Source: a virus (lineage: Duplodnaviria; Heunggongvirae; Uroviricota; Caudoviricetes). From it: a stretch of DNA of 15,979 bases. Below are positions 1-7,457 of this stretch, in pieces. The DNA lies in IMG/VR virus record IMGVR_UViG_2548876865_000009, positions 1 through 15,979 of that record. One strand, 5' to 3'. Under the pieces are notes generated by a model, which did not search any database, was not told the origin of the DNA, and worked only from the letters and a program-made list of their open reading frames with translations. The position numbers and the translations under genes were made by a program. The number at the start of each line of letters is the position of its first letter. The stretch's first letter is position 1.

Positions 1-165
1 AACCAGCTACCTCGCCGTGCGCTTTCGCGTTATGGTCTGACTTTTCAGGGAAATATACTTTCAGTAAACTGTCAGTGCCGGATGCTCACCCGTGTCCGGC
101 GCACGCACTCCACCTCACCCGTGGAGAACTCCTTAATTACCAACCTTAGCTTCGTTGGTTAGCTA

Positions 166-384
166 TTAACGCGGGTATGTAATCATTCTGGCAATGGTTA
201 ATGCCGCTGCTTTTTCCAGATTGGTGATATCCTGCTCCAGAGAGGACAGATTTTCAGCCTGCTTAGCCCTGGCTTCATTGGCCCATTTCAGATTCTGCGC
301 TGCATTAATTTTCTGGCGCATCCACTCATAAAGTTCATCATCGGTATAGTCTGGCGCGGTGATGACGGGTTCTCGTTTCTGCAT
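166..384 (-). CDS. ydfC: YdfC-like small protein (72 aa), third gene of a dicB-operon-like block
   Basis: 72-aa ORF from track; sequence matches my recollection of E. coli Qin prophage YdfC; GAGGAA Shine-Dalgarno about 5 nt upstream of the ATG; same strand and order as YdfA/YdfB-like ORFs. Confidence 0.7.
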   Translation of the reverse strand: MQKREPVITAPDYTDDELYEWMRQKINAAQNLKWANEARAKQAENLSSLEQDITNLEKAAALTIARMITYPR

Positions 385-413
385 ACTGATTCCTCGCGGT
401 GCTGCTTCGCTTA

Positions 414-542
414 TCAGCCGTTAGATTTTGCCGAGCTGGAAAGTGCCTGTTTAAACTCACTGAAGCTGAGAGCTTCTTCGCCTTCGGCAAGGCCTTCGAA
501 GTATTCTTCGTAAGCCTTTTTCATGATTGTGTCGAAATCCAT
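414..542 (-). CDS. ydfB: YdfB-like small protein (42 aa), not in the ORF track
   Basis: Manually translated minus-strand ORF MDFDTIMKKAYEEYFEGLAEGEEALSFSEFKQALSSSAKSNG; ATG at 542-540 preceded by AGGTGA; stop TGA at 416-414; starts 1 nt after the upstream stop; length and position match YdfB of the Qin dicB operon. Confidence 0.6.
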   Translation of the reverse strand: MDFDTIMKKAYEEYFEGLAEGEEALSFSEFKQALSSSAKSNG

Positions 543-543
543 A

Positions 544-699
544 TCACTCACCTGAGTTTCTTTCCAGCCAGCGACGGGCACCATTTTCGGTTTTAAACGT
601 TTTGCTTTTGGTATACGTCATCGCGGTGAACGTACCGTCCTGGTTGGGGAACACGCCACATACCAGAGATTCGCTGTTGCCAAGATCGATAGTATCCAT
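544..699 (-). CDS. ydfA: YdfA-like small protein (51 aa); track ORF extends in frame to 780
   Basis: Internal Met of the 78-aa track ORF gives MDTIDLGNSESLVCGVFPNQDGTFTAMTYTKSKTFKTENGARRWLERNSGE (51 aa), matching recalled YdfA; GAGGT Shine-Dalgarno 5 nt upstream of this ATG; the longer 78-aa form cannot be excluded. Confidence 0.7.
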   Translation of the reverse strand: MDTIDLGNSESLVCGVFPNQDGTFTAMTYTKSKTFKTENGARRWLERNSGE

Positions 700-780
700 G
701 CTGACCTCATTTCCCCTTAACGCCGGGGTAGCGGAACAAAAACCTGCTGCATAGTTATTAAAGTTGAACCCTGCCGTCAT

Positions 781-975
781 GTTCTTACGCCTCGGGCTGG
801 CTACTTAACCCCTGACCACTGCCGGGTAACTCTAGGTATTGCCCTGCGTTCTGTGGGGCGGGGTGGGTTGATGGATACAATCTACAAATTAAAATTTAAT
901 TGGTCAATGTTTTTATCATTAAATTTGTAGTTAAGGGCGGTTGAATTAGTCCCAAAACGGGACTAGCATACAGTT
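781..975. promoter_or_regulatory. Divergent control region between the ydfA-like operon (minus) and higB (plus), with inverted repeats
   Basis: 9-bp inverted repeats ctacaaatt (882-890) and aatttgtag (922-930); internal palindrome aattaaa-a-tttaatt (887-901); hairpin or palindrome agtccc-aaaac-gggact (948-964) just upstream of the higB ATG. Confidence 0.45.
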
Positions 976-1278
976 ATGAAGATCATCTCAGTTAAAACAC
1001 TCAGGGATTTTTGGGCGGAGAATCCTGATGCAGAACAACCGCTAAGGGCATGGGTGGATGAGGCAGCAAAAGCTGACTGGAAAAGCCCGGCAGACATTAA
1101 GGCACAATACCGAACGGCCAGTATATTGAAAAACCGGCGCGTGGTATTCAACATAAAAGGTAATCATTACCGTTTAATTGTTTCAATTGCGTATCAGCGA
1201 GGATGGGTATTTGTTAAATTCATCGGAAACCATAAGGAATACGATGCCATTGATGCTGATACCATCGAACTGGAGTAA
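976..1278 (+). CDS. higB: HigB-family type II toxin (RelE/ParE superfamily mRNA interferase), 100 aa
   Basis: Small basic protein with the HigB-like C-terminal region (VFNIKGNHYRLIVSIAY...FIGNHKEYD); toxin-first order, followed 2 nt later by an HTH antitoxin gene. Confidence 0.8.
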   Translation: MKIISVKTLRDFWAENPDAEQPLRAWVDEAAKADWKSPADIKAQYRTASILKNRRVVFNIKGNHYRLIVSIAYQRGWVFVKFIGNHKEYDAIDADTIELE

Positions 1279-1280
1279 GC

Positions 1281-1640
1281 ATGAACATCAAACCTATTCG
1301 TACAGAGCAAGATTATGAAGCCGCGTTGCGTGCTGTTGAGCCCATGTTCGACAATGAGCCGGAAATTAACACGCCTGAGGGGGATTTCTTTGAGGTAATG
1401 TGTTTGCTAATAGAGGAATATGAAAAAAAACATTATCCCATTGAGCCACCATCCCCAATTGAAGCTATAAGATTTCGCATGGAACAGCAGGGGCTGACTG
1501 TGAAGGATTTGGAACCCGCAATTGGGAAAAAAAATCGGGTTTACGAGGTGCTGAATGGCACCAGAAGTCTTACGTTACCAATGATTCGCCGTCTTCATAA
1601 TCAATTTGGTATTCCCCTGGAAAGCTTGGTAGGGTTATAA
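1281..1640 (+). CDS. higA: HigA-family antitoxin, HTH (XRE-type) DNA-binding protein, 119 aa
   Basis: C-terminal helix-turn-helix (GTRSLTLPMIRRLHNQFGIPLESL); GGAG Shine-Dalgarno 6 nt upstream of ATG; immediately downstream of higB. Confidence 0.8.
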   Translation: MNIKPIRTEQDYEAALRAVEPMFDNEPEINTPEGDFFEVMCLLIEEYEKKHYPIEPPSPIEAIRFRMEQQGLTVKDLEPAIGKKNRVYEVLNGTRSLTLPMIRRLHNQFGIPLESLVGL

Positions 1641-1686
1641 AATCTGCTAGTCATTTGCCTGATGCTCGTTCCAGAAAAGGAACGCA

Positions 1687-2079
1687 TCAGGCAGTTTTGT
1701 TTTTCTGCCGCAGTAACTCTTCAAGTTTCCGTTTATAGAAATCGCGTTTTTGCTCCATATCTCGAATGATCTGCTCTGCGTCGCTTTGAGGTAACTCATC
1801 TAAAAGCGATATGATTTTTCGTTGTTGTTCTGTAAGTTGCGGTTGGTTGTTATTACTGGATACAGCAATCTTATCGCCGAGAGTTTCTTCTTCCATAAAG
1901 AACCAATGGACGGGATGTTGTGAGAGCTCTGCTAATTTTTCCAGTTTATCCATTCTTGGCATCACGCCTTTCAACCAACCTTGCACGGATTGGGGTTTCA
2001 CACCAAGACGTCTTCCCAGCTCTGACTGGTTTATGTTCAATTCCTGCAACACCTGCTGAAGGCGTTTTACAAAGATCAT
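1687..2079 (-). CDS. DicA-like (CI-type) HTH repressor, about 130 aa from the preferred ATG
   Basis: N-terminal HTH (LNINQSELGRRLGVKPQSVQGWLKG) and a C-terminal region resembling recalled DicA; divergent from a Cro-like gene; preferred start ATG at 2079-2077 with GAGGGG upstream (track start 2085 is GTG). Confidence 0.75.
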   Translation of the reverse strand: MIFVKRLQQVLQELNINQSELGRRLGVKPQSVQGWLKGVMPRMDKLEKLAELSQHPVHWFFMEEETLGDKIAVSSNNNQPQLTEQQRKIISLLDELPQSDAEQIIRDMEQKRDFYKRKLEELLRQKNKTA

Positions 2080-2204
2080 CACCACCCCTCGTAAACTAAT
2101 CTCGCGATCCTACAGAAAAAATTGATAAGTGGCATTACAAATAGAAGTTGAAATTTAAAATTAAATTTGCAAGTATCGGTATCATCGTAAAGTTTGGAGG
2201 AAAC
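2080..2204. promoter_or_regulatory. Divergent repressor/cro-type control region (operator and promoter region)
   Basis: 125-bp AT-rich gap between divergent HTH genes; AT-rich palindromic tract aaatttaaaattaaattt (2151-2168); TTGAAA (2148-2153) and tatcat (2180-2185) promoter-like hexamers; exact promoter not assignable by eye. Confidence 0.5.
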
Positions 2205-2477
2205 ATGCAAAGAAGTACTCAAGTGAAAATCCTGTCGATAATGAGCCAATCAGAACTAGGGCGTCGTCTTGGTAAAACACCACAAACTATAAGTGGATGG
2301 TTTAAAAAACGAGTTCCTGCAGAGGAGGTTATTCCAGCATGTGAGGCGCTTGGATGGGGAGTAACTCCGCATGAATTGCGCCCTGATAAATACCCTAACC
2401 CAACCGATGGCTTGCCTTGTGGACGTAAGAGTACAGCGAATGAATTACTGGCGGTGAACAATGAAAATCACTCCTGA
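2205..2477 (+). CDS. Cro-like / YdaS-DicC-type small HTH regulator, 90 aa
   Basis: HTH motif SQSELGRRLGKTPQTISGWF; GGAGG Shine-Dalgarno at 2196-2200 upstream of ATG 2205 (track ORF starts further upstream at 2148 with no good RBS). Confidence 0.7.
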   Translation: MQRSTQVKILSIMSQSELGRRLGKTPQTISGWFKKRVPAEEVIPACEALGWGVTPHELRPDKYPNPTDGLPCGRKSTANELLAVNNENHS

Positions 2478-2982
2478 ACAGGTTGGCGAGGCTCTGGATG
2501 CTTGGGTATGCAGACCAGGAATGACACAGGAGCAGGCGACGATATTAATCACCGAAGCATTCTGGGATCTGAAAGAGCGTCCGAACATCGATGTTCAGCG
2601 TGTCACGTTTGATGATGGCGCGGTTGATCAACGGGCGCTTGGCGTTAACCGGGTGAAGATATTCGAACGCTGGAAGGCTATCGACACCAGGGATAAGCGT
2701 GAAAAATTCACGGCGCTGATTCCGGCAATTATGGAGGCTATCCGGATTAGTGATTTCAGGTTGTACCGCGAAATTACTGACGGAAAAAGCATTACGTACA
2801 TGATCGCCGGGTTAAACAAAGAATATGGCGATGTGGTGGAGTCCGGTCTGCTTTTTGCTGATCCAGCCGTTGTGGAACGTGAGACAGACGAGCTTATAGA
2901 AAAAGCAATTGCTTTCAAGCGTGCCTATCGTCAGCAGTACCAACAAAAAGCCGGATGGAATTATGAGCCTTCTTTTTGCTGA
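2461..2982 (+). CDS. YdaT-like protein at the CII position, 173 aa
   Basis: Overlaps the upstream stop (translational coupling); loose resemblance to Rac prophage YdaT (IPAI motif region); family assignment is from memory only. Confidence 0.5.
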   Translation: MKITPEQVGEALDAWVCRPGMTQEQATILITEAFWDLKERPNIDVQRVTFDDGAVDQRALGVNRVKIFERWKAIDTRDKREKFTALIPAIMEAIRISDFRLYREITDGKSITYMIAGLNKEYGDVVESGLLFADPAVVERETDELIEKAIAFKRAYRQQYQQKAGWNYEPSFC

Positions 2983-3928
2983 ACGTCCGCTGGTTATAAA
3001 CACACAGCTGGCGATGAAGATTGGTTTAAACGAAGCCATTGTGTTGCAGCAACTGCATTACTGGTTGAGGGATACCAGTTCCGGCATGGAATGTTATGGC
3101 GTTCGCTGGATTTATAACACAACGGAACAATGGCTGGAACAGTTTCCGTTCTGGTCAGAGTCAACGTTAAAGCGCGCGTTTGCAAGTCTGAAAGCGCTGG
3201 GGCTTTTGCGTAGCGAAAAGCTCAATAAATCGAAGCGTGACATGACTAATTTTTACACAATTAACTACGATAGCGCGCTTTTAGATGATGGCAAAGCGAG
3301 CGAATCCATCGGGTCAAAATGCGCCACTCCATCAGGTCAAAATGACACGATGGAAGAGGTCAAAATGAAACGTTCCATTGGTTCAAAACGACCCAATCTC
3401 ATCGGGTCAAAATGGCCCGATGATCCTACAGAGAATACAACAGAGAATACAACAGAGAATAAAAAACTCTCTTGTCCGGACGCTTCGCAACCGGACGAGC
3501 AGACGCAGGAACAGGCGTTTTTAACCCGCCATCCTGATGCTGTTGTGTTTAGTGTGAAAAAACGCCAGTGGGGAACCCGGGAGGATTTGACGTGTGCGCA
3601 GTGGATCTGGGGGCGGGTTGTAAACCTGTACGAACAGGCTGCCAGTGACGATGGTGAGATCACGCGACCGAAAGAGCCCAACTGGACGGCGTGGGCCAAT
3701 GACGTGCGCACAATGCGGATGTTGGATGGACGAAGTCACAGACAAATTTGCGAAATGTTCAGGCGGGCACAACGGGATCCGTTCTGGATAAAAAACATCA
3801 AGAGTCCGGAAAAACTCCGTGAGAAATGGGATGAACTGGTTATTCGACTGTGGCGTGGTCCCGCGCAGCGTTGCGTGAATCATATTTCTGAACCGGATAC
3901 CGAAATTCCGCCGGGATTCAGGGGGTAA
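2963..3928 (+). CDS. Phage replication initiator / replisome organizer (lambda O-like), about 321 aa; carries the origin iterons
   Basis: N-terminus MSLLFAERPLVINTQLAMKIGLNEAIVLQQLHYWL typical of phage replisome-organizer N-domains as I recall them; iterons and AT-rich repeats inside the CDS; followed by a DnaC-like gene; track start 2909 lies inside the upstream gene, ATG 2963 preferred. Confidence 0.75.
   Translation: MSLLFAERPLVINTQLAMKIGLNEAIVLQQLHYWLRDTSSGMECYGVRWIYNTTEQWLEQFPFWSESTLKRAFASLKALGLLRSEKLNKSKRDMTNFYTINYDSALLDDGKASESIGSKCATPSGQNDTMEEVKMKRSIGSKRPNLIGSKWPDDPTENTTENTTENKKLSCPDASQPDEQTQEQAFLTRHPDAVVFSVKKRQWGTREDLTCAQWIWGRVVNLYEQAASDDGEITRPKEPNWTAWANDVRTMRMLDGRSHRQICEMFRRAQRDPFWIKNIKSPEKLREKWDELVIRLWRGPAQRCVNHISEPDTEIPPGFRG
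3309..3414 (+). repeat. Five iteron-like direct repeats (consensus about TCGGGTCAAAATG) at 23-24 bp spacing: putative origin
   Basis: Copies start at 3309, 3332, 3355, 3378 (degenerate) and 3402; located inside the O-like gene as in lambda ori. Confidence 0.7.
3428..3463 (+). repeat. Three tandem 12-bp repeats (acagagaataca) followed by an A-run; AT-rich element next to the iterons
   Basis: acagagaataca x2 plus acagagaataaa; encodes TENTTENTTENKK in the initiator. Confidence 0.7.
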
Positions 3929-3934
3929 CGTGCC

Positions 3935-4675
3935 ATGAAAAACATTACGTCAGGTGGTGTTCTGGCAAGAGTCAGCAGATTTGTGCCGCAGGATGCAATC
4001 CCTCCGTACCGTACGGTGGAGGAGTGGCGGGAATGGCAGCTTGCTGAAGGGCGTAAGCGCAGCGAGGAGGTTAATCGCCTGAATCATCAGACTCGGGTTG
4101 AAAAAATCATTAACCGCTCTGGTATCCAGCCGCTTCACCGGAAGTGTACGTTCGGTAACTACCGGGTGCAGAACGATGGGCAGCGCCATGCCCTGAGTCA
4201 GGCGAAATCCATTGCGGCAGAACTGGAAGGCGGCTGTACGAATTTTGTTTTCAGTGGCCGGCCTGGCACAGGAAAAAACCACCTGGCTGCGGCGATAGGC
4301 AATCGGCTGATGGAGAAGGGGGGCAGCGTAATTATCATCACTGTGTCTGATGTCATGAGTGTGTTGCACGACAGTTACGACAACGGCAAATCGGGTGAAA
4401 AATTTTTACAGGAGCTTTGCGGGGTGGATTTGCTGGTCCTGGATGAAATCGGCATGCAGCGGGATACGCGCAACGAGCAGGTCACGCTTAATCAGATTGT
4501 TGACCGCAGAACGGCATCGTTACTCAGTGTGGGGATGCTGACAAATCTTAACCATGCAGCGATGAATACACTTCTCGGCGAGCGGGTGATGGACCGCATG
4601 TCCATGAACGGTGGTCGCTGGGTGACGTTTAACTGGGAGAGCTGGCGTCCGAACGTCAGCCAGCACAGGAACTGA
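3935..4675 (+). CDS. DnaC/IstB-like AAA+ helicase loader (replication protein), 246 aa
   Basis: Walker [16 protein letters not shown] and Walker B LLVLDEIG; directly downstream of the initiator; GGGGG Shine-Dalgarno upstream of ATG. Confidence 0.85.
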
Positions 4676-4704
4676 GAAGTAATTTTTATCCGGAGGAAAT
4701 TTTA

Positions 4705-5421
4705 ATGGAAACCGTATTTGATGCACTGAAAGCACTGAAAAGAGCCTCGTCTCACGAGATTGCAGCCCGTGTTGAAATCAGCCGTGACGATGCTGTTACC
4801 GAACTCTGGAAACTGAAGCGCCGTGGTGAAGCGGATAACAAGGGTTCGATGTGGTGGCTGACTCAGGCTGGTGAAAGTGAACCAGTGTCACCGGTACCGA
4901 AAGTGACCGCGCAAATGCTGATTGAGGCGATTGAACAACATGGCCCACAAACGGCGGATGAACTGGCACTGATGTTCGGAATTACCTCCCGCCGGGCGAA
5001 TTCATCGCTGGCGATGGCAATCAGCAAAGGGCGTCTGATTCGCGTGAATCAGGGCGGTAAATTTCGTTACTGCATACCGGGCGCTGATTTACCGGCAGAG
5101 CCGGAAGCTGCATCCGTAGCGGAAACGGATGGTAAAGCCTTTCCTCAGCCAGCAGGAGTTGCGTTACCGGTACAGGAAGCGGCGACACAGGAAGAAATTA
5201 AAACAGATACTGTGGCGGACATTGTGCAGTCGCTGCCATCGTTTACCGAAACGAAAGCAGATGACCTGATTCTACCATCGCTGAATGTGGCTAACCGCGA
5301 GCTGCGCCGGGCGAAAAGTCATGTCCAGAAGTGGGAGCGTGTCTGTGCCGCGCTGCGGGAACTGAACAAACACAGGGATATTCTCCGGGATATTACCACC
5401 ACCAGAGAGCAGCAACAGTGA
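4705..5421 (+). CDS. Hypothetical protein, 238 aa, apparently two winged-helix-like domains plus a C-terminal helical region
   Basis: GGAGGAAA Shine-Dalgarno 7 nt upstream; long ORF; two similar wH-like segments (around residues 1-45 and 70-115); function unknown. Confidence 0.7.
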
Positions 5422-5735
5422 GTGGCTGGAAGACGTGGTGCCGGGCGGAAATCCTGATACTCCGGCAGTGTGCGGGAACAATGACGGTGGAATGCATCGG
5501 GATGCTTATTGGTCGTAGTGAGGCTGCGGTCAGAACGAAAGCGCGGGAACTGGGTATTAGTATGATGTTACGGGGTGATTATCACCAGTCAGCAAAATAT
5601 CCGCAGAGTGATATTGAGCTGGCGCGACAGCAGCATCAGCGTGGCGTGTCGAGGAGAGAAATCGCCAGAAAATTCGGAATGCCGTTGCGCACAGTGAATA
5701 ACTACGTTTATTTCGACAGGAGGGTGTCTGCGTGA
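5418..5735 (+). CDS. Hypothetical small HTH protein, about 105 aa, start uncertain
   Basis: GTG start overlapping the upstream TGA (GTGA); alternative ATG at 5481; C-terminal HTH-like motif [19 protein letters not shown]. Confidence 0.5.
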
Positions 5736-5959
5736 AAATCCTGTATCAGGATTACGGCCCGGTGGGGCAGGTGCTTATCAGCAGTACTGTAATGGAGTTC
5801 CGGAAGCATAACCGTGTGGTGGATTCTGTGCTGTTAACCTGTCCGGGGATATCGGCGAGTCGTGCAGGTGTGTTTATTATGAAGACGAAATTATATGGCA
5901 GTAAGGCGTGGATAAAGAAGGCGTATCGTGTAGCGTTGCAGGAGGTTAACAGTGAGTGA
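5732..5959 (+). CDS. Hypothetical protein, 75 aa
   Basis: GTG start overlapping the upstream stop; AGGAGGG Shine-Dalgarno at 5718-5724. Confidence 0.5.
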   Translation: MKILYQDYGPVGQVLISSTVMEFRKHNRVVDSVLLTCPGISASRAGVFIMKTKLYGSKAWIKKAYRVALQEVNSE

Positions 5960-6263
5960 AATTAAAGAAATGCCGGTAGTTCGTGACGAATATGGCTACT
6001 GGACACATCCTGAATATGAAAAATTCTGTGATGGTCGGGAGAATATTTCAACGGAAGAATTTAACGCGTGGATGGAGGCAAATAATCTTCAGTGGACTAT
6101 CTGCACTATGGATGAAGATGATTTTAACCTGGACGCAGATGGCCCTGATATTTCAGCATGGGAACCGGAACGACCAGAGGGCGATGGCTGGTTTATTGGT
6201 TCCATTCATGATACGGAAGATGGCCCGGTTTGTGTCTGGTTGCGAAATAAGGCTGAAGCATAA
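5952..6263 (+). CDS. Hypothetical acidic protein, 103 aa
   Basis: GTG start with GGAGG Shine-Dalgarno at 5941-5945; overlaps the upstream gene by 8 nt. Confidence 0.55.
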   Translation: MSEIKEMPVVRDEYGYWTHPEYEKFCDGRENISTEEFNAWMEANNLQWTICTMDEDDFNLDADGPDISAWEPERPEGDGWFIGSIHDTEDGPVCVWLRNKAEA

Positions 6264-6609
6264 AGGAGATAAACCAACTAACAACTAAATACTGAAGATT
6301 TAAATCAGAAACGATTTTTATTAAATCCTTAACCGGAGGGATTCCTGCACCCTCAGAATATCAGGAGGCCGCCCGAAAGGGCGGTAAGAAATGAAACATT
6401 ATTTAGAAAAAATTACCCACGAAAGAGCAGAACAACAGAGTTTCTGTTTTTCATTCTGTTTATAGTGTTGATGATACCGATATCCCCGCTATTACTGGTC
6501 TGGATAATTGGAAGGACATTTGAACCAGTTATTGAGCTATATACCGATGTGACATGGGAATCATTCAGCGCACTGCACAATAAAATTAATCCGTATAAGG
6601 AAAACTGAT

Positions 6610-7167
6610 ATGAGCACTATTACCAGAGAACGCGCGGAGATTAAATCATACATCACAGGCTTCCTGAGCGACTCGGCGCACGATAACAAGTCTTCAGACA
6701 GCCTGCTGGCTAATGTGTTTCGTATCGCGCTGGCATCACTGGAAGCAGAGCCGATAGCAATGGTAGTGCCTGATGAAATGGATTTGCTTACCTGCCATCT
6801 CGACGGTGTAACTAAAACATATGCTGATGGCTGGAACGCCTGCCGCGTCGCCATGCTTCAGGCCGGAAACTTTCGGGAAAATAAGAATTCGTCAACCAAC
6901 AATTTTCGGGAAATCTCGGAAACGTCAACCAGATCTCCGATAACTCCGGATGGCTGGATAAGCTGTACTGAGCGAATGCCTGAAAAGAGCCAGAACGTGC
7001 TTATTTCGATGAATATCGATAGCGAGGCAGGGCCATTAATATATTCCGCACGCTATCTCGGAGGCACGTTCCGGCGCGGAGGTATAGCAGTTAGTCCGGG
7101 TAATGATCTTAGGCAAGCAACCCACTGGATGCCGCTACCAGAACCGCCGCAGGAGGTGAATCAATGA
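6610..7167 (+). CDS. Hypothetical phage protein, DUF551-like C-terminal region, 185 aa
   Basis: AAGGAAAA Shine-Dalgarno 7 nt upstream; C-terminal GWISCTERMPEKSQNVLIS resembles the DUF551 motif as I recall it. Confidence 0.65.
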   Translation: MSTITRERAEIKSYITGFLSDSAHDNKSSDSLLANVFRIALASLEAEPIAMVVPDEMDLLTCHLDGVTKTYADGWNACRVAMLQAGNFRENKNSSTNNFREISETSTRSPITPDGWISCTERMPEKSQNVLISMNIDSEAGPLIYSARYLGGTFRRGGIAVSPGNDLRQATHWMPLPEPPQEVNQ

Positions 7168-7247
7168 CCTGGCCTGAAGCATTCACAACGGTAGGAATTG
7201 CGATGGCGGTGGCGCTGGTGGTGTATTCGATTTGCCGCTGGGGATAA
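7164..7247 (+). CDS. Putative 27-aa hydrophobic peptide (MTWPEAFTTVGIAMAVALVVYSICRWG), not in the ORF track
   Basis: ATG overlaps the upstream TGA (ATGA); GGAGGTGA Shine-Dalgarno at 7151-7158; single predicted transmembrane-like segment. Confidence 0.35.
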   Translation: MTWPEAFTTVGIAMAVALVVYSICRWG

Positions 7248-7457
7248 AAACGGTTTGCGGGAAAAGGATAGTTAAGTAGAATTGCAGCGGGTGCTTGAGG
7301 CTATCTGCCTCGGGCATGAACACCAACGGCAGATAGAGAAAAGCCCCAGTTAACATTACGCGTCCTGCAAGACGCTTAACATTAATCTGAGGCTCAATCC
7401 ATGCTGAACACATGTAGGTTAGCCTCTTACGTGCCGAAAGGCAAGGAGAAGCAGGCT

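Follow-up and report, generated by a model that had tools for sequence, protein, structure and literature searches.

Where does a prophage begin its replication when its initiator protein matches no Pfam family? The question is raised by a stretch of 15,979 nucleotides (the window), positions 1 to 15,979 of the IMG/VR record IMGVR_UViG_2548876865_000009, a virus of the Caudoviricetes, in which the gene for an O-like replication initiation protein carries an array of short repeats in its middle. A sequence-only reading had taken these repeats for a replication origin of the lambda type. The comparisons described here make it very likely that positions 3284-3499 are the replication origin of the prophage, located inside the linker-coding part of its own initiator gene.

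The iteron array and its constraint

The repeats of the first kind, or iterons, are located as follows.

3284..3306, plus strand: degenerate leftmost iteron GATGATGGCAAAGCGAGCGAATC, in register with the array, 68% identity
3307..3329, plus strand: iteron 1, CATCGGGTCAAAATGCGCCACTC, with a good left half-site and a poor right half, variable among relatives
3330..3352, plus strand: iteron 2, CATCAGGTCAAAATGACACGATG, a palindromic, nearly invariant inverted repeat
3353..3375, plus strand: iteron 3, GAAGAGGTCAAAATGAAACGTTC
3376..3399, plus strand: iteron 4, CATTGGTTCAAAACGACCCAATCT
3400..3422, plus strand: iteron 5, CATCGGGTCAAAATGGCCCGATG, the best palindrome, a nearly invariant inverted repeat with 91% complementarity

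The five starts proposed by the sequence-only reading (3309, 3332, 3355, 3378 and 3402, with spacings of 23, 23, 23 and 24 bp) are exact, and Tandem Repeats Finder reports a 23-bp period repeated 5.2 times at 3292-3412 (score 65). The core of the iterons, GGTCAAAATG, is present in four exact copies, with GTTCAAAACG as the fifth (3312, 3335, 3358, 3381 and 3405), all of them on the plus strand and within 103 bp, and no further exact copy is found elsewhere in the 15,979-nt window. When up to three mismatches are allowed, the 15-mer CATCGGGTCAAAATG has four matches against 0.58 expected, a number that was reached in none of 200 shuffles. The origin-type repeats span codons 108-179 of the 321-codon gene, between the N- and C-terminal domains of the protein.

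Every iteron is an imperfect palindrome centred on an A-run and built from the half-sites CATCGGGTCA, with dyad symmetry in iterons 2, 4 and 5; the best palindromes are TCCATCAGGTCA/TGACACGATGGA (arms 3328-3339 and 3343-3354) and TCATCGGGTCA/TGGCCCGATGA (3399-3423). In an alignment of 86 close relatives (64 distinct sequences), only 4 of the 23 positions of iteron 2 vary, each at low entropy. The leftmost (sixth) iteron is intact in the Klebsiella phage Kp4882-3 (GAGGTCAAAGTGACC) and in Enterobacter.

It is important to consider that these repeats lie in a coding region. They could be merely a disordered and repetitive protein linker (IGSK, TENT), born by slippage and devoid of any function in cis, as might be expected of a segment that encodes a low-complexity linker and in which the 12-mer array described below grows and shrinks in frame. 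This explanation is, nonetheless, extremely improbable. The 23-bp period is not a multiple of three, so that successive copies of GGTCAAAATG fall into each of the three frames and are translated as IGSK, SGQN and EEVKM; this is incompatible with a peptide repeat. In addition, nowhere in the gene are synonymous positions better conserved than in the repeats: the entropy at third codon positions is 0.093 bits in the iterons and 0.073 in the A-rich part, compared with 0.334 in the N-terminal and 0.466 in the C-terminal domain, and the lowest 59-codon third-position window of the whole gene begins at 3287. The amino acid-changing codon positions 1 and 2, on the contrary, are more variable in the repeat region than in the flanking domains. 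Judged from these alignments, the constraint on the repeats acts on the DNA and not on the protein.

The tandem 12-mer and the A-rich segment

Two further elements follow the iterons.

3428..3466, plus strand: three tandem ACAGAGAATA(CA) units and an A-run, the proposed unwinding element with the motif CAGAGAnTAC
3471..3499, no strand assigned: inverted repeat CTTGTCCGG-n11-CCGGACGAG, the palindrome after the 12-mers

Both the tandem 12-bp repeat and the TENT repeat that it was said to encode are present: Tandem Repeats Finder gives ACAGAGAATACA repeated 2.8 times at 3428-3461 with 100% match (score 68), and the translation reads (P)TENTTENTTEN. The segment 3427-3466 is the least stable 40-mer of 2400-4700, with a dG of -44.9 against a mean of -55.4 (sd 4.0). 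It had also been predicted that the number of 12-mers could differ between isolates, and copy numbers of 2, 3, 4, 5 and 6 do occur in E. coli genomes. They were surveyed in 138 E. coli genomes with the exact array, from ungapped matches anchored on the right flank (five start positions).

2 copies: strain 13081; at least one genome (one sampled match)
3 copies: the window; most of the remaining ~119 genomes (as deduced from sampled matches)
4 copies: strain 88-3493; 9 genomes
5 copies: O178:H19 2012C-4431 and IMG/VR locus L008; 4 genomes
6 copies: isolate 07-4299; 6 genomes

All five iterons are unaltered in the fetched examples of the different copy numbers.

Among the initiator genes related through their N-terminal domain (described in the next section), CAGAGAnTAC with at most one mismatch is found in 69 of 77, in 2-5 copies in 62 of them. 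It occurs 180 times on the coding strand against twice on the opposite one and, except for 4 hits, directly after the iterons. The motif is mostly read as T-E-x-T, although in about ten lineages the spacing is 11 nt, which places one copy in another frame. A search for the peptide [TP]ExT revealed that GAG accounts for 125 of 127 Glu codons, compared with 46% gene-wide, and ACA for 110 of 111 first Thr codons. In the motif the wobble positions do not change, and the base that does is a second codon position, which gives N, I, T or S. Frames, synonymous-site conservation and codon fixation all lead to the rejection of a protein-level repeat. From the sequence comparison, the 12-mer is thus not just an AT-rich filler: its nucleotides are conserved across phyla as a motif of related phage origins, those of E. 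coli as well as those of Bacillus and Lactobacillus.

The motif is also found beyond this group of genes. When IMG/VR was scanned for exact matches to two adjacent units, at least 120 loci were returned, 79 of them with an N-terminal domain of the window type upstream; in the remaining ones the N-terminal domains are not joined to it by BLASTP, the repeats are their own and the C-terminal domains are others, with an xxQhhYW helix motif in common. One hit in a giant-virus bin (L193) was set aside, as it looks like an unrelated low-complexity protein repeat. In another locus (L204, IMG/VR contig 3300013646_000002), a different N-terminal domain and the same CAGAGAnTAC tandem are combined with a C-terminal domain that matches the Pfam DnaT DNA-binding family PF17948 (E 3e-10); it is a second, independent link of such phage initiators to DnaT, the first being the tail described below.

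The palindrome has a counterpart in the family as well. Its form in Enterobacterales is GTCNGGTTG-n5-CAACCNGAC, and 39% of the related genes, against 4.5% of control segments, have an inverted repeat of 8/9 or better in the 60 nt past the motif.

A slightly less than even chance is given to the proposal that ACAGAGAnTAC is a strand-specific and sequence-specific origin element, repeated 2-6 times at 11-12 nt and 5-9 nt after the last iteron, throughout a superfamily of phage winged-helix initiators. On this proposal the element would range from Enterobacterales as far as Campylobacterota and Firmicutes, independently of host, C-terminal domain and iteron sequence. The motif could be the initiator's hold on the opened strand, or a start site for helicase or primase. 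A literature search, including one by motif sequence, found no description of CAGAGAnTAC, only unrelated eukaryotic papers. A primase site was considered on the grounds that the bottom strand offers one 5'-CTG per unit and that the unit has the length of a primer; this idea was judged weak because Firmicute primases prefer CTA while the motif is unchanged in Firmicutes.

In bacterial oriC, too, a short, strand-specific tandem motif (13-mers, DnaA-trios) stands beside the double-strand sites of the initiator, in the least stable segment, and in this the window resembles it; it differs in the motif, in the period (11-12 nt in the window) and in the family of the initiator. That the initiator of the window would bind the single strand is pure inference.

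Initiator domains and exchange with the repeats

The protein encoded around the repeats can be divided into the following parts.

2963..3928, plus strand: initiator gene (O-like replication initiation protein), 321 aa, from open reading frame and translation; PHROG 391
2963..3289, plus strand: N-terminal winged-helix domain (aa 1-109), the proposed iteron-binding part
3401..3844, plus strand: lambda-O-like C-terminal half (aa 147-294), 36% identity over 148 aa to lambda O by BLASTP, E 2e-26
3857..3925, plus strand: C-terminal tail QRCVNHISEPDTEIPPGFRG, last 22 aa, near-identical to the C-terminus of host DnaT, the E. coli primosomal protein

The whole protein matches no Pfam family, and the full-length profile of PHROG 391 ('replication initiation O-like') matches with E 1.6e-89, residues 17-321 aligning with positions 11-298 of 298. 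For the N-terminal domain, an AlphaFold model (pLDDT 77.8), computed from an alignment of homologues of the 115-aa domain (mostly fragments of less than 200 aa), predicts a winged helix with helices 54-60 and 66-79 and strands 82-85 and 97-100. With this model Foldseek returned winged-helix proteins only, at weak E-values, the top one being a staphylococcal plasmid replication initiator (4pql). The domain has no match to Phage_rep_O (PF04492) even at E<=1, where lambda O scores 5.7e-36, nor to Pfam RepA_N (PF06970) at E<=1, and BLASTP against lambda O detected no N-terminal similarity. At the other end of the protein, the tail was aligned by phmmer to the extreme end of DnaT in the PDB entries 6aep, 2ru8 and 9zbt (E 5e-5 to 2e-4), and it also matches NCBIfam DnaT (positions 158-179); the likeness suggests mimicry of a host helicase-loading contact. 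Similar tails (IPxGFRG) are found in Enterobacterales relatives with unrelated C-terminal domains and are absent from the Firmicutes relatives, where an acidic/aromatic tail (for instance EEDFRFDDET) closes several of the proteins.

A scan with the N-terminal domain alignment, one genome per species, gave 80 loci with 43-96% identity (the 96% locus is a truncated fragment) in Gamma-, Beta- and Deltaproteobacteria, Campylobacterota and Firmicutes: Enterobacterales, Pseudomonas, Comamonas, Desulfuromonas, Hydrogenimonas, Bacillus-group genera, Staphylococcus and Limosilactobacillus. Periodicity was studied at lags 15-33 in the 76 genes that are long enough (43-94% identity in the N-terminal domain). 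A lack of the repeats in conserved homologs had been named as what would speak against an origin; instead, 60 of the 76 have their strongest direct periodicity at 21-24 bp, in the part of the gene from nt 250 to 420. An arrayless Neobacillus/Bacillus subgroup encodes proteins of 225-283 aa (loci L139, L141, L142, L144-L147, L151 and L156); CAGAGAnTAC is missing from L139, L144-L146, L151 and L156, and is present as a single one-mismatch copy at nt 184, off the usual place, in L141, L142 and L147. Such short relatives may have their origin elsewhere or play another role.

The iteron sequence is clade-specific (GGTCAAAATGACC, GGACAATTTGTCC, GTGCAAATTGCAC, GGATCAAAATGATCC), and it varies together with the protein. 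The residue in front of a conserved Thr, where the predicted recognition helix 66-79 begins (S67 in the window), tracks the base that flanks the CAA core.

Ser: T, in 30 of 30 loci
Asp: G, in 16 of 16 loci
Lys: A, in 5 of 5 loci
Glu: T, in 2 of 2 loci

The Asp type is found in Pantoea, Pseudomonas, Yersinia, Comamonas, Hydrogenimonas and Desulfuromonas, and the Ser type in Enterobacterales and Firmicutes.

The repeats also travel with the N-terminal domain. In Klebsiella phage Kp4882-3 this domain, six iterons and the 12-mers are kept, the C-terminal domain is of the Phg_2220_C family, no loader gene is present, and the sequence diverges directly past the 12-mers. The reverse combination occurs in E. 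coli UTME-10 and in O157:H7 strain 7636, where an HTH_36 N-terminal domain with different repeats (TTGACCCGTCAA, period 15) precedes the same C-terminal half and homology resumes at ~3459; the CAGAGAnTAC motif is absent from the HTH_36 variant, and the inverted repeat 3471-3499 is retained in spite of the swapped domain. Many E. coli genomes, O157:H7 strains included, match only from query base 560 (window ~3459). Three fetched loci (L088-L090, 1308-2270) share the C-terminal half and the DnaC-like gene; their N-terminal domain is of the HTH_36 type, and five or six 15-bp repeats TTGACCCGTCAAnn replace the iterons. The joint of this mosaic is placed where the 12-mers end, at ~3459-3470 of the window. 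By this sequence evidence, the N-terminal domain and the repeats are exchanged as one unit.

Such breakpoints raise the question of whether 3420-3500 is conserved only as a recombination joint for the exchange of N- and C-terminal domains, with no role in initiation. The mosaic breakpoints fall exactly there, both in the E. coli genomes (from ~3459) and in the Klebsiella phage (after the 12-mers), and the motif is common to initiators with at least four different C-terminal domains. Selection for exchangeability would, however, be weak, and the near-fixation of GAG and ACA codons across phyla is beyond its reach; neither the strand bias of 180 to 2 nor the fixed position after the iterons is explained by a joint. 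Moreover, a joint at the linker is to be expected anyway if the origin is located there, as in the staphylococcal plasmid pPR9, which swapped its N-terminal domain and origin for the HTH_36 type (PMC5703833). A mere recombination joint is therefore very unlikely.

Known origins, genomic setting and significance

The anatomy of lambda and Stx-phage origins, as well as the evidence that O binds the iterons, has been described (PMC7466680). The likeness to lambda claimed by the sequence-only reading holds for the architecture and for the C-terminal half (homologous to lambda O), and a DnaC-type loader gene follows; it fails for the N-terminal domain, and the 12-mer is more than AT-rich. In the lambda record the iterons start at 39034, 39054, 39078 and 39101, from codon 117 of O onward, in the middle part of the gene that encodes the linker, as in the window (from codon 115). 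Lambda has four 18-bp iterons with spacings of 20, 24 and 23, and the window five or six of 23-24 bp. The lambda iteron ATCCCTCAAAACGAGGGAA, with its core TCAAAACGA flanked by inverted arms, follows the same design as ATCGGGTCAAAATGGCCCGAT in the window, the shared form being ATC(N3)TCAAAAYG(N3)GAT, although the arms are CCC/GGG in lambda and GGG/CCC in the window. The order along transcription is also the same: the iterons come first, then ~40 bp that are A-rich and of low stability, and finally a palindrome. The A-rich 44-mer contains A26 C6 G5 T7 in lambda and A25 C7 G6 T5 in the window, and the dG of the A-rich 40-mer is -44.1 in lambda, on a locus background of -55.1 (sd 3.9), compared with the -44.9 of the window. 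In the unwinding region, where the window has its conserved motif in tandem, lambda has no more than a single near-copy (CAGAGAATTC). Other differences concern the N-terminal domain (Phage_rep_O in lambda O), the DnaT-like tail, which lambda O lacks, and the partner gene, of the lambda P type in one case and a DnaC/IstB-type AAA+ loader in the other. The Stx phages 933W and P27, with six-iteron origins, are among the closest known systems. On these sequence comparisons, the window fits the lambda-type origin architecture and does not belong to the family of the lambda N-terminal domain.

A second parallel is provided by the RepA_N replicons of Firmicutes plasmids (pSK41, pTZ2162) and the RepA of the Vibrio PLE, whose three-part initiators comprise a winged-helix N-terminal domain of ~120 aa, an origin-encoded linker and an exchangeable C-terminal domain. 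The structures 4PTA and 4PT7 belong to RepA_N initiators of staphylococcal plasmids, and the iterons of this family are inverted repeats converging on a poly-A tract (PMC7145576), a description that also applies to the window iterons, central in the initiator gene. In pSK41 the origin (Rep boxes) is central in the rep gene and the linker it encodes is dispensable (PMC5703833). The N-terminal domain of RepA_N replicons binds the repeats in the middle of its own gene, and binding at the equally central repeats of the window is predicted. The differences are the absence of a sequence match to Pfam RepA_N, the phage rather than plasmid context and the lambda-O-like C-terminal domain. Thus, the element probably works like ori-lambda and the RepA_N replicons, without being a sequence-level member of either N-terminal domain family.

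In the proposed mechanism, the N-terminal winged-helix domain would bind as dimers to the iterons, five or six in number and 23 bp long, whose inverted arms converge on an A-tract. The nucleoprotein complex would destabilise the adjoining A-rich segment 3427-3466 with its tandem ACAGAGAnTAC units. The lambda-O-like half together with the DnaT-like tail would then recruit the DnaB helicase, with either host DnaC or the DnaC-type loader of the phage (3935-4675) as intermediary, leading to origin firing.

The iterons might instead be sites of the initiator, or of a regulator, that serve autoregulation, copy control or the exclusion of related phages, with the true origin elsewhere. Plasmid iterons also serve control, and ectopic copies of the lambda origin reportedly inhibit phage growth. 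This explanation is, nevertheless, quite unlikely. The iterons are always followed by a low-stability motif array (5-9 nt away, in a fixed orientation) and often by a palindrome, which amounts to a full origin anatomy; Tandem Repeats Finder detected no second repeat array in the replication module. An identity of the iterons with the known YdaT/CII-like operator was rejected, given the dissimilarity of its published box (TTGATT-N6-AATCAA). Besides, regulatory and origin roles are compatible rather than exclusive.

Several points weigh against an origin at 3284-3499. A literature search found no experimental origin activity, binding or unwinding for the element or its close relatives. Iterons 1 and 3 are poor palindromes and variable among relatives; 16 of the 76 relatives, mostly short Neobacillus-type genes, have no array at the usual place; the A+T content of the 'AT-rich' part is merely 65-67%; and a nearby 40-mer (3225-3264) is nearly as unstable as 3427-3466. 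The counts of co-variation and conservation are uncorrected for shared ancestry, and the prophage may be defective. A search of the literature on iterons with DnaD-like phage initiators returned nothing on the window initiator family, and Rfam-type RNAs, promoters and terminators gave nothing above chance in 2400-4000.

The genes around the initiator, in the lambda-like order cro, cII-like, initiator and loader, include:

1687-2085, minus strand: prophage repressor gene, upstream of the initiator
2148-2477: Cro/YdaS-like gene, upstream of the initiator
2461-2982: CII/YdaT-like gene, upstream of the initiator
3935..4675, plus strand: DnaC-type helicase loader gene (NCBIfam PRK12377; Pfam IstB_IS21; PHROG 50)

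The loader exceeds the curated cut-off of PRK12377 (479.3 bits against 389) and stays under that of the DnaC equivalog (304 bits against 357, E 7e-91), so it is assigned to a DnaC-like subfamily and not to DnaC proper. Phages HannyBb (L004, 2564-3992) and mEp460_ev081 (L005, 2564-3971) have the same initiator, with 88% nucleotide identity across the gene, followed by a Ren-like or LygF gene and no helicase loader at that place; the DnaC-like gene is, therefore, not obligatory for this initiator type.

The prophage is very probably a lambdoid, Stx-phage-like prophage of E. coli. Its rightward late region (9883-14958) has a Stx-phage layout without stx, with a Q antiterminator, a DNA methylase and the following features; the 378 bp between the tRNAs and the esterase contain no open reading frame of at least 50 aa assigned to stx.

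12238-12487: tRNA-Met/Arg/Arg
12597-12805: sRNA (small RNA) STnc100
12806-12865, minus strand: anti-GcvB sRNA AgvB
12865-14958: NanS-p-like esterase gene

A DUF1391 gene is separated from the repressor by an insertion of two genes, one for a HigB-like toxin (976-1278) and one that is HTH antitoxin-like (1281-1640). An Rfam sok antitoxin RNA (113.5 bits) at 7289-7463 overlaps a small open reading frame (~7401-7613), and a relative (L001) has a Hok/Gef family coding sequence (CDS) annotated within its nin-like region. An exact 9-bp tandem duplication, GCACTGAAA twice at 4723-4740, marks the start of a DUF1627 gene (4705-5421).

The bare finding is ordinary, because an origin inside the initiator gene is a textbook arrangement. 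What is new relative to the literature searched is the combination of a Pfam-less winged-helix initiator with a lambda-O C-terminal half and a DnaT-like tail, and an unwinding region that carries a sequence-specific tandem motif. With the element, the origin is annotated for a type of prophage whose initiator is called a 'hypothetical protein' by PGAP (as is the same 966-nt CDS, 97% identical, in E. coli CFSAN004176) and whose initiator and loader DNA (2900-4700) finds at least a partial match in 2943 of the 5426 complete E. coli genomes, 223 of which contain 80% of it or more. The number of 12-bp units (2-6) offers an easy way to tell strains apart and may also tune origin strength. The match of one residue to one base (Ser-T, Asp-G, Lys-A) provides a testable recognition rule for a Pfam-less initiator family, and the conservation of CAGAGAnTAC across phyla suggests that the unwinding region is read in a sequence-specific manner.

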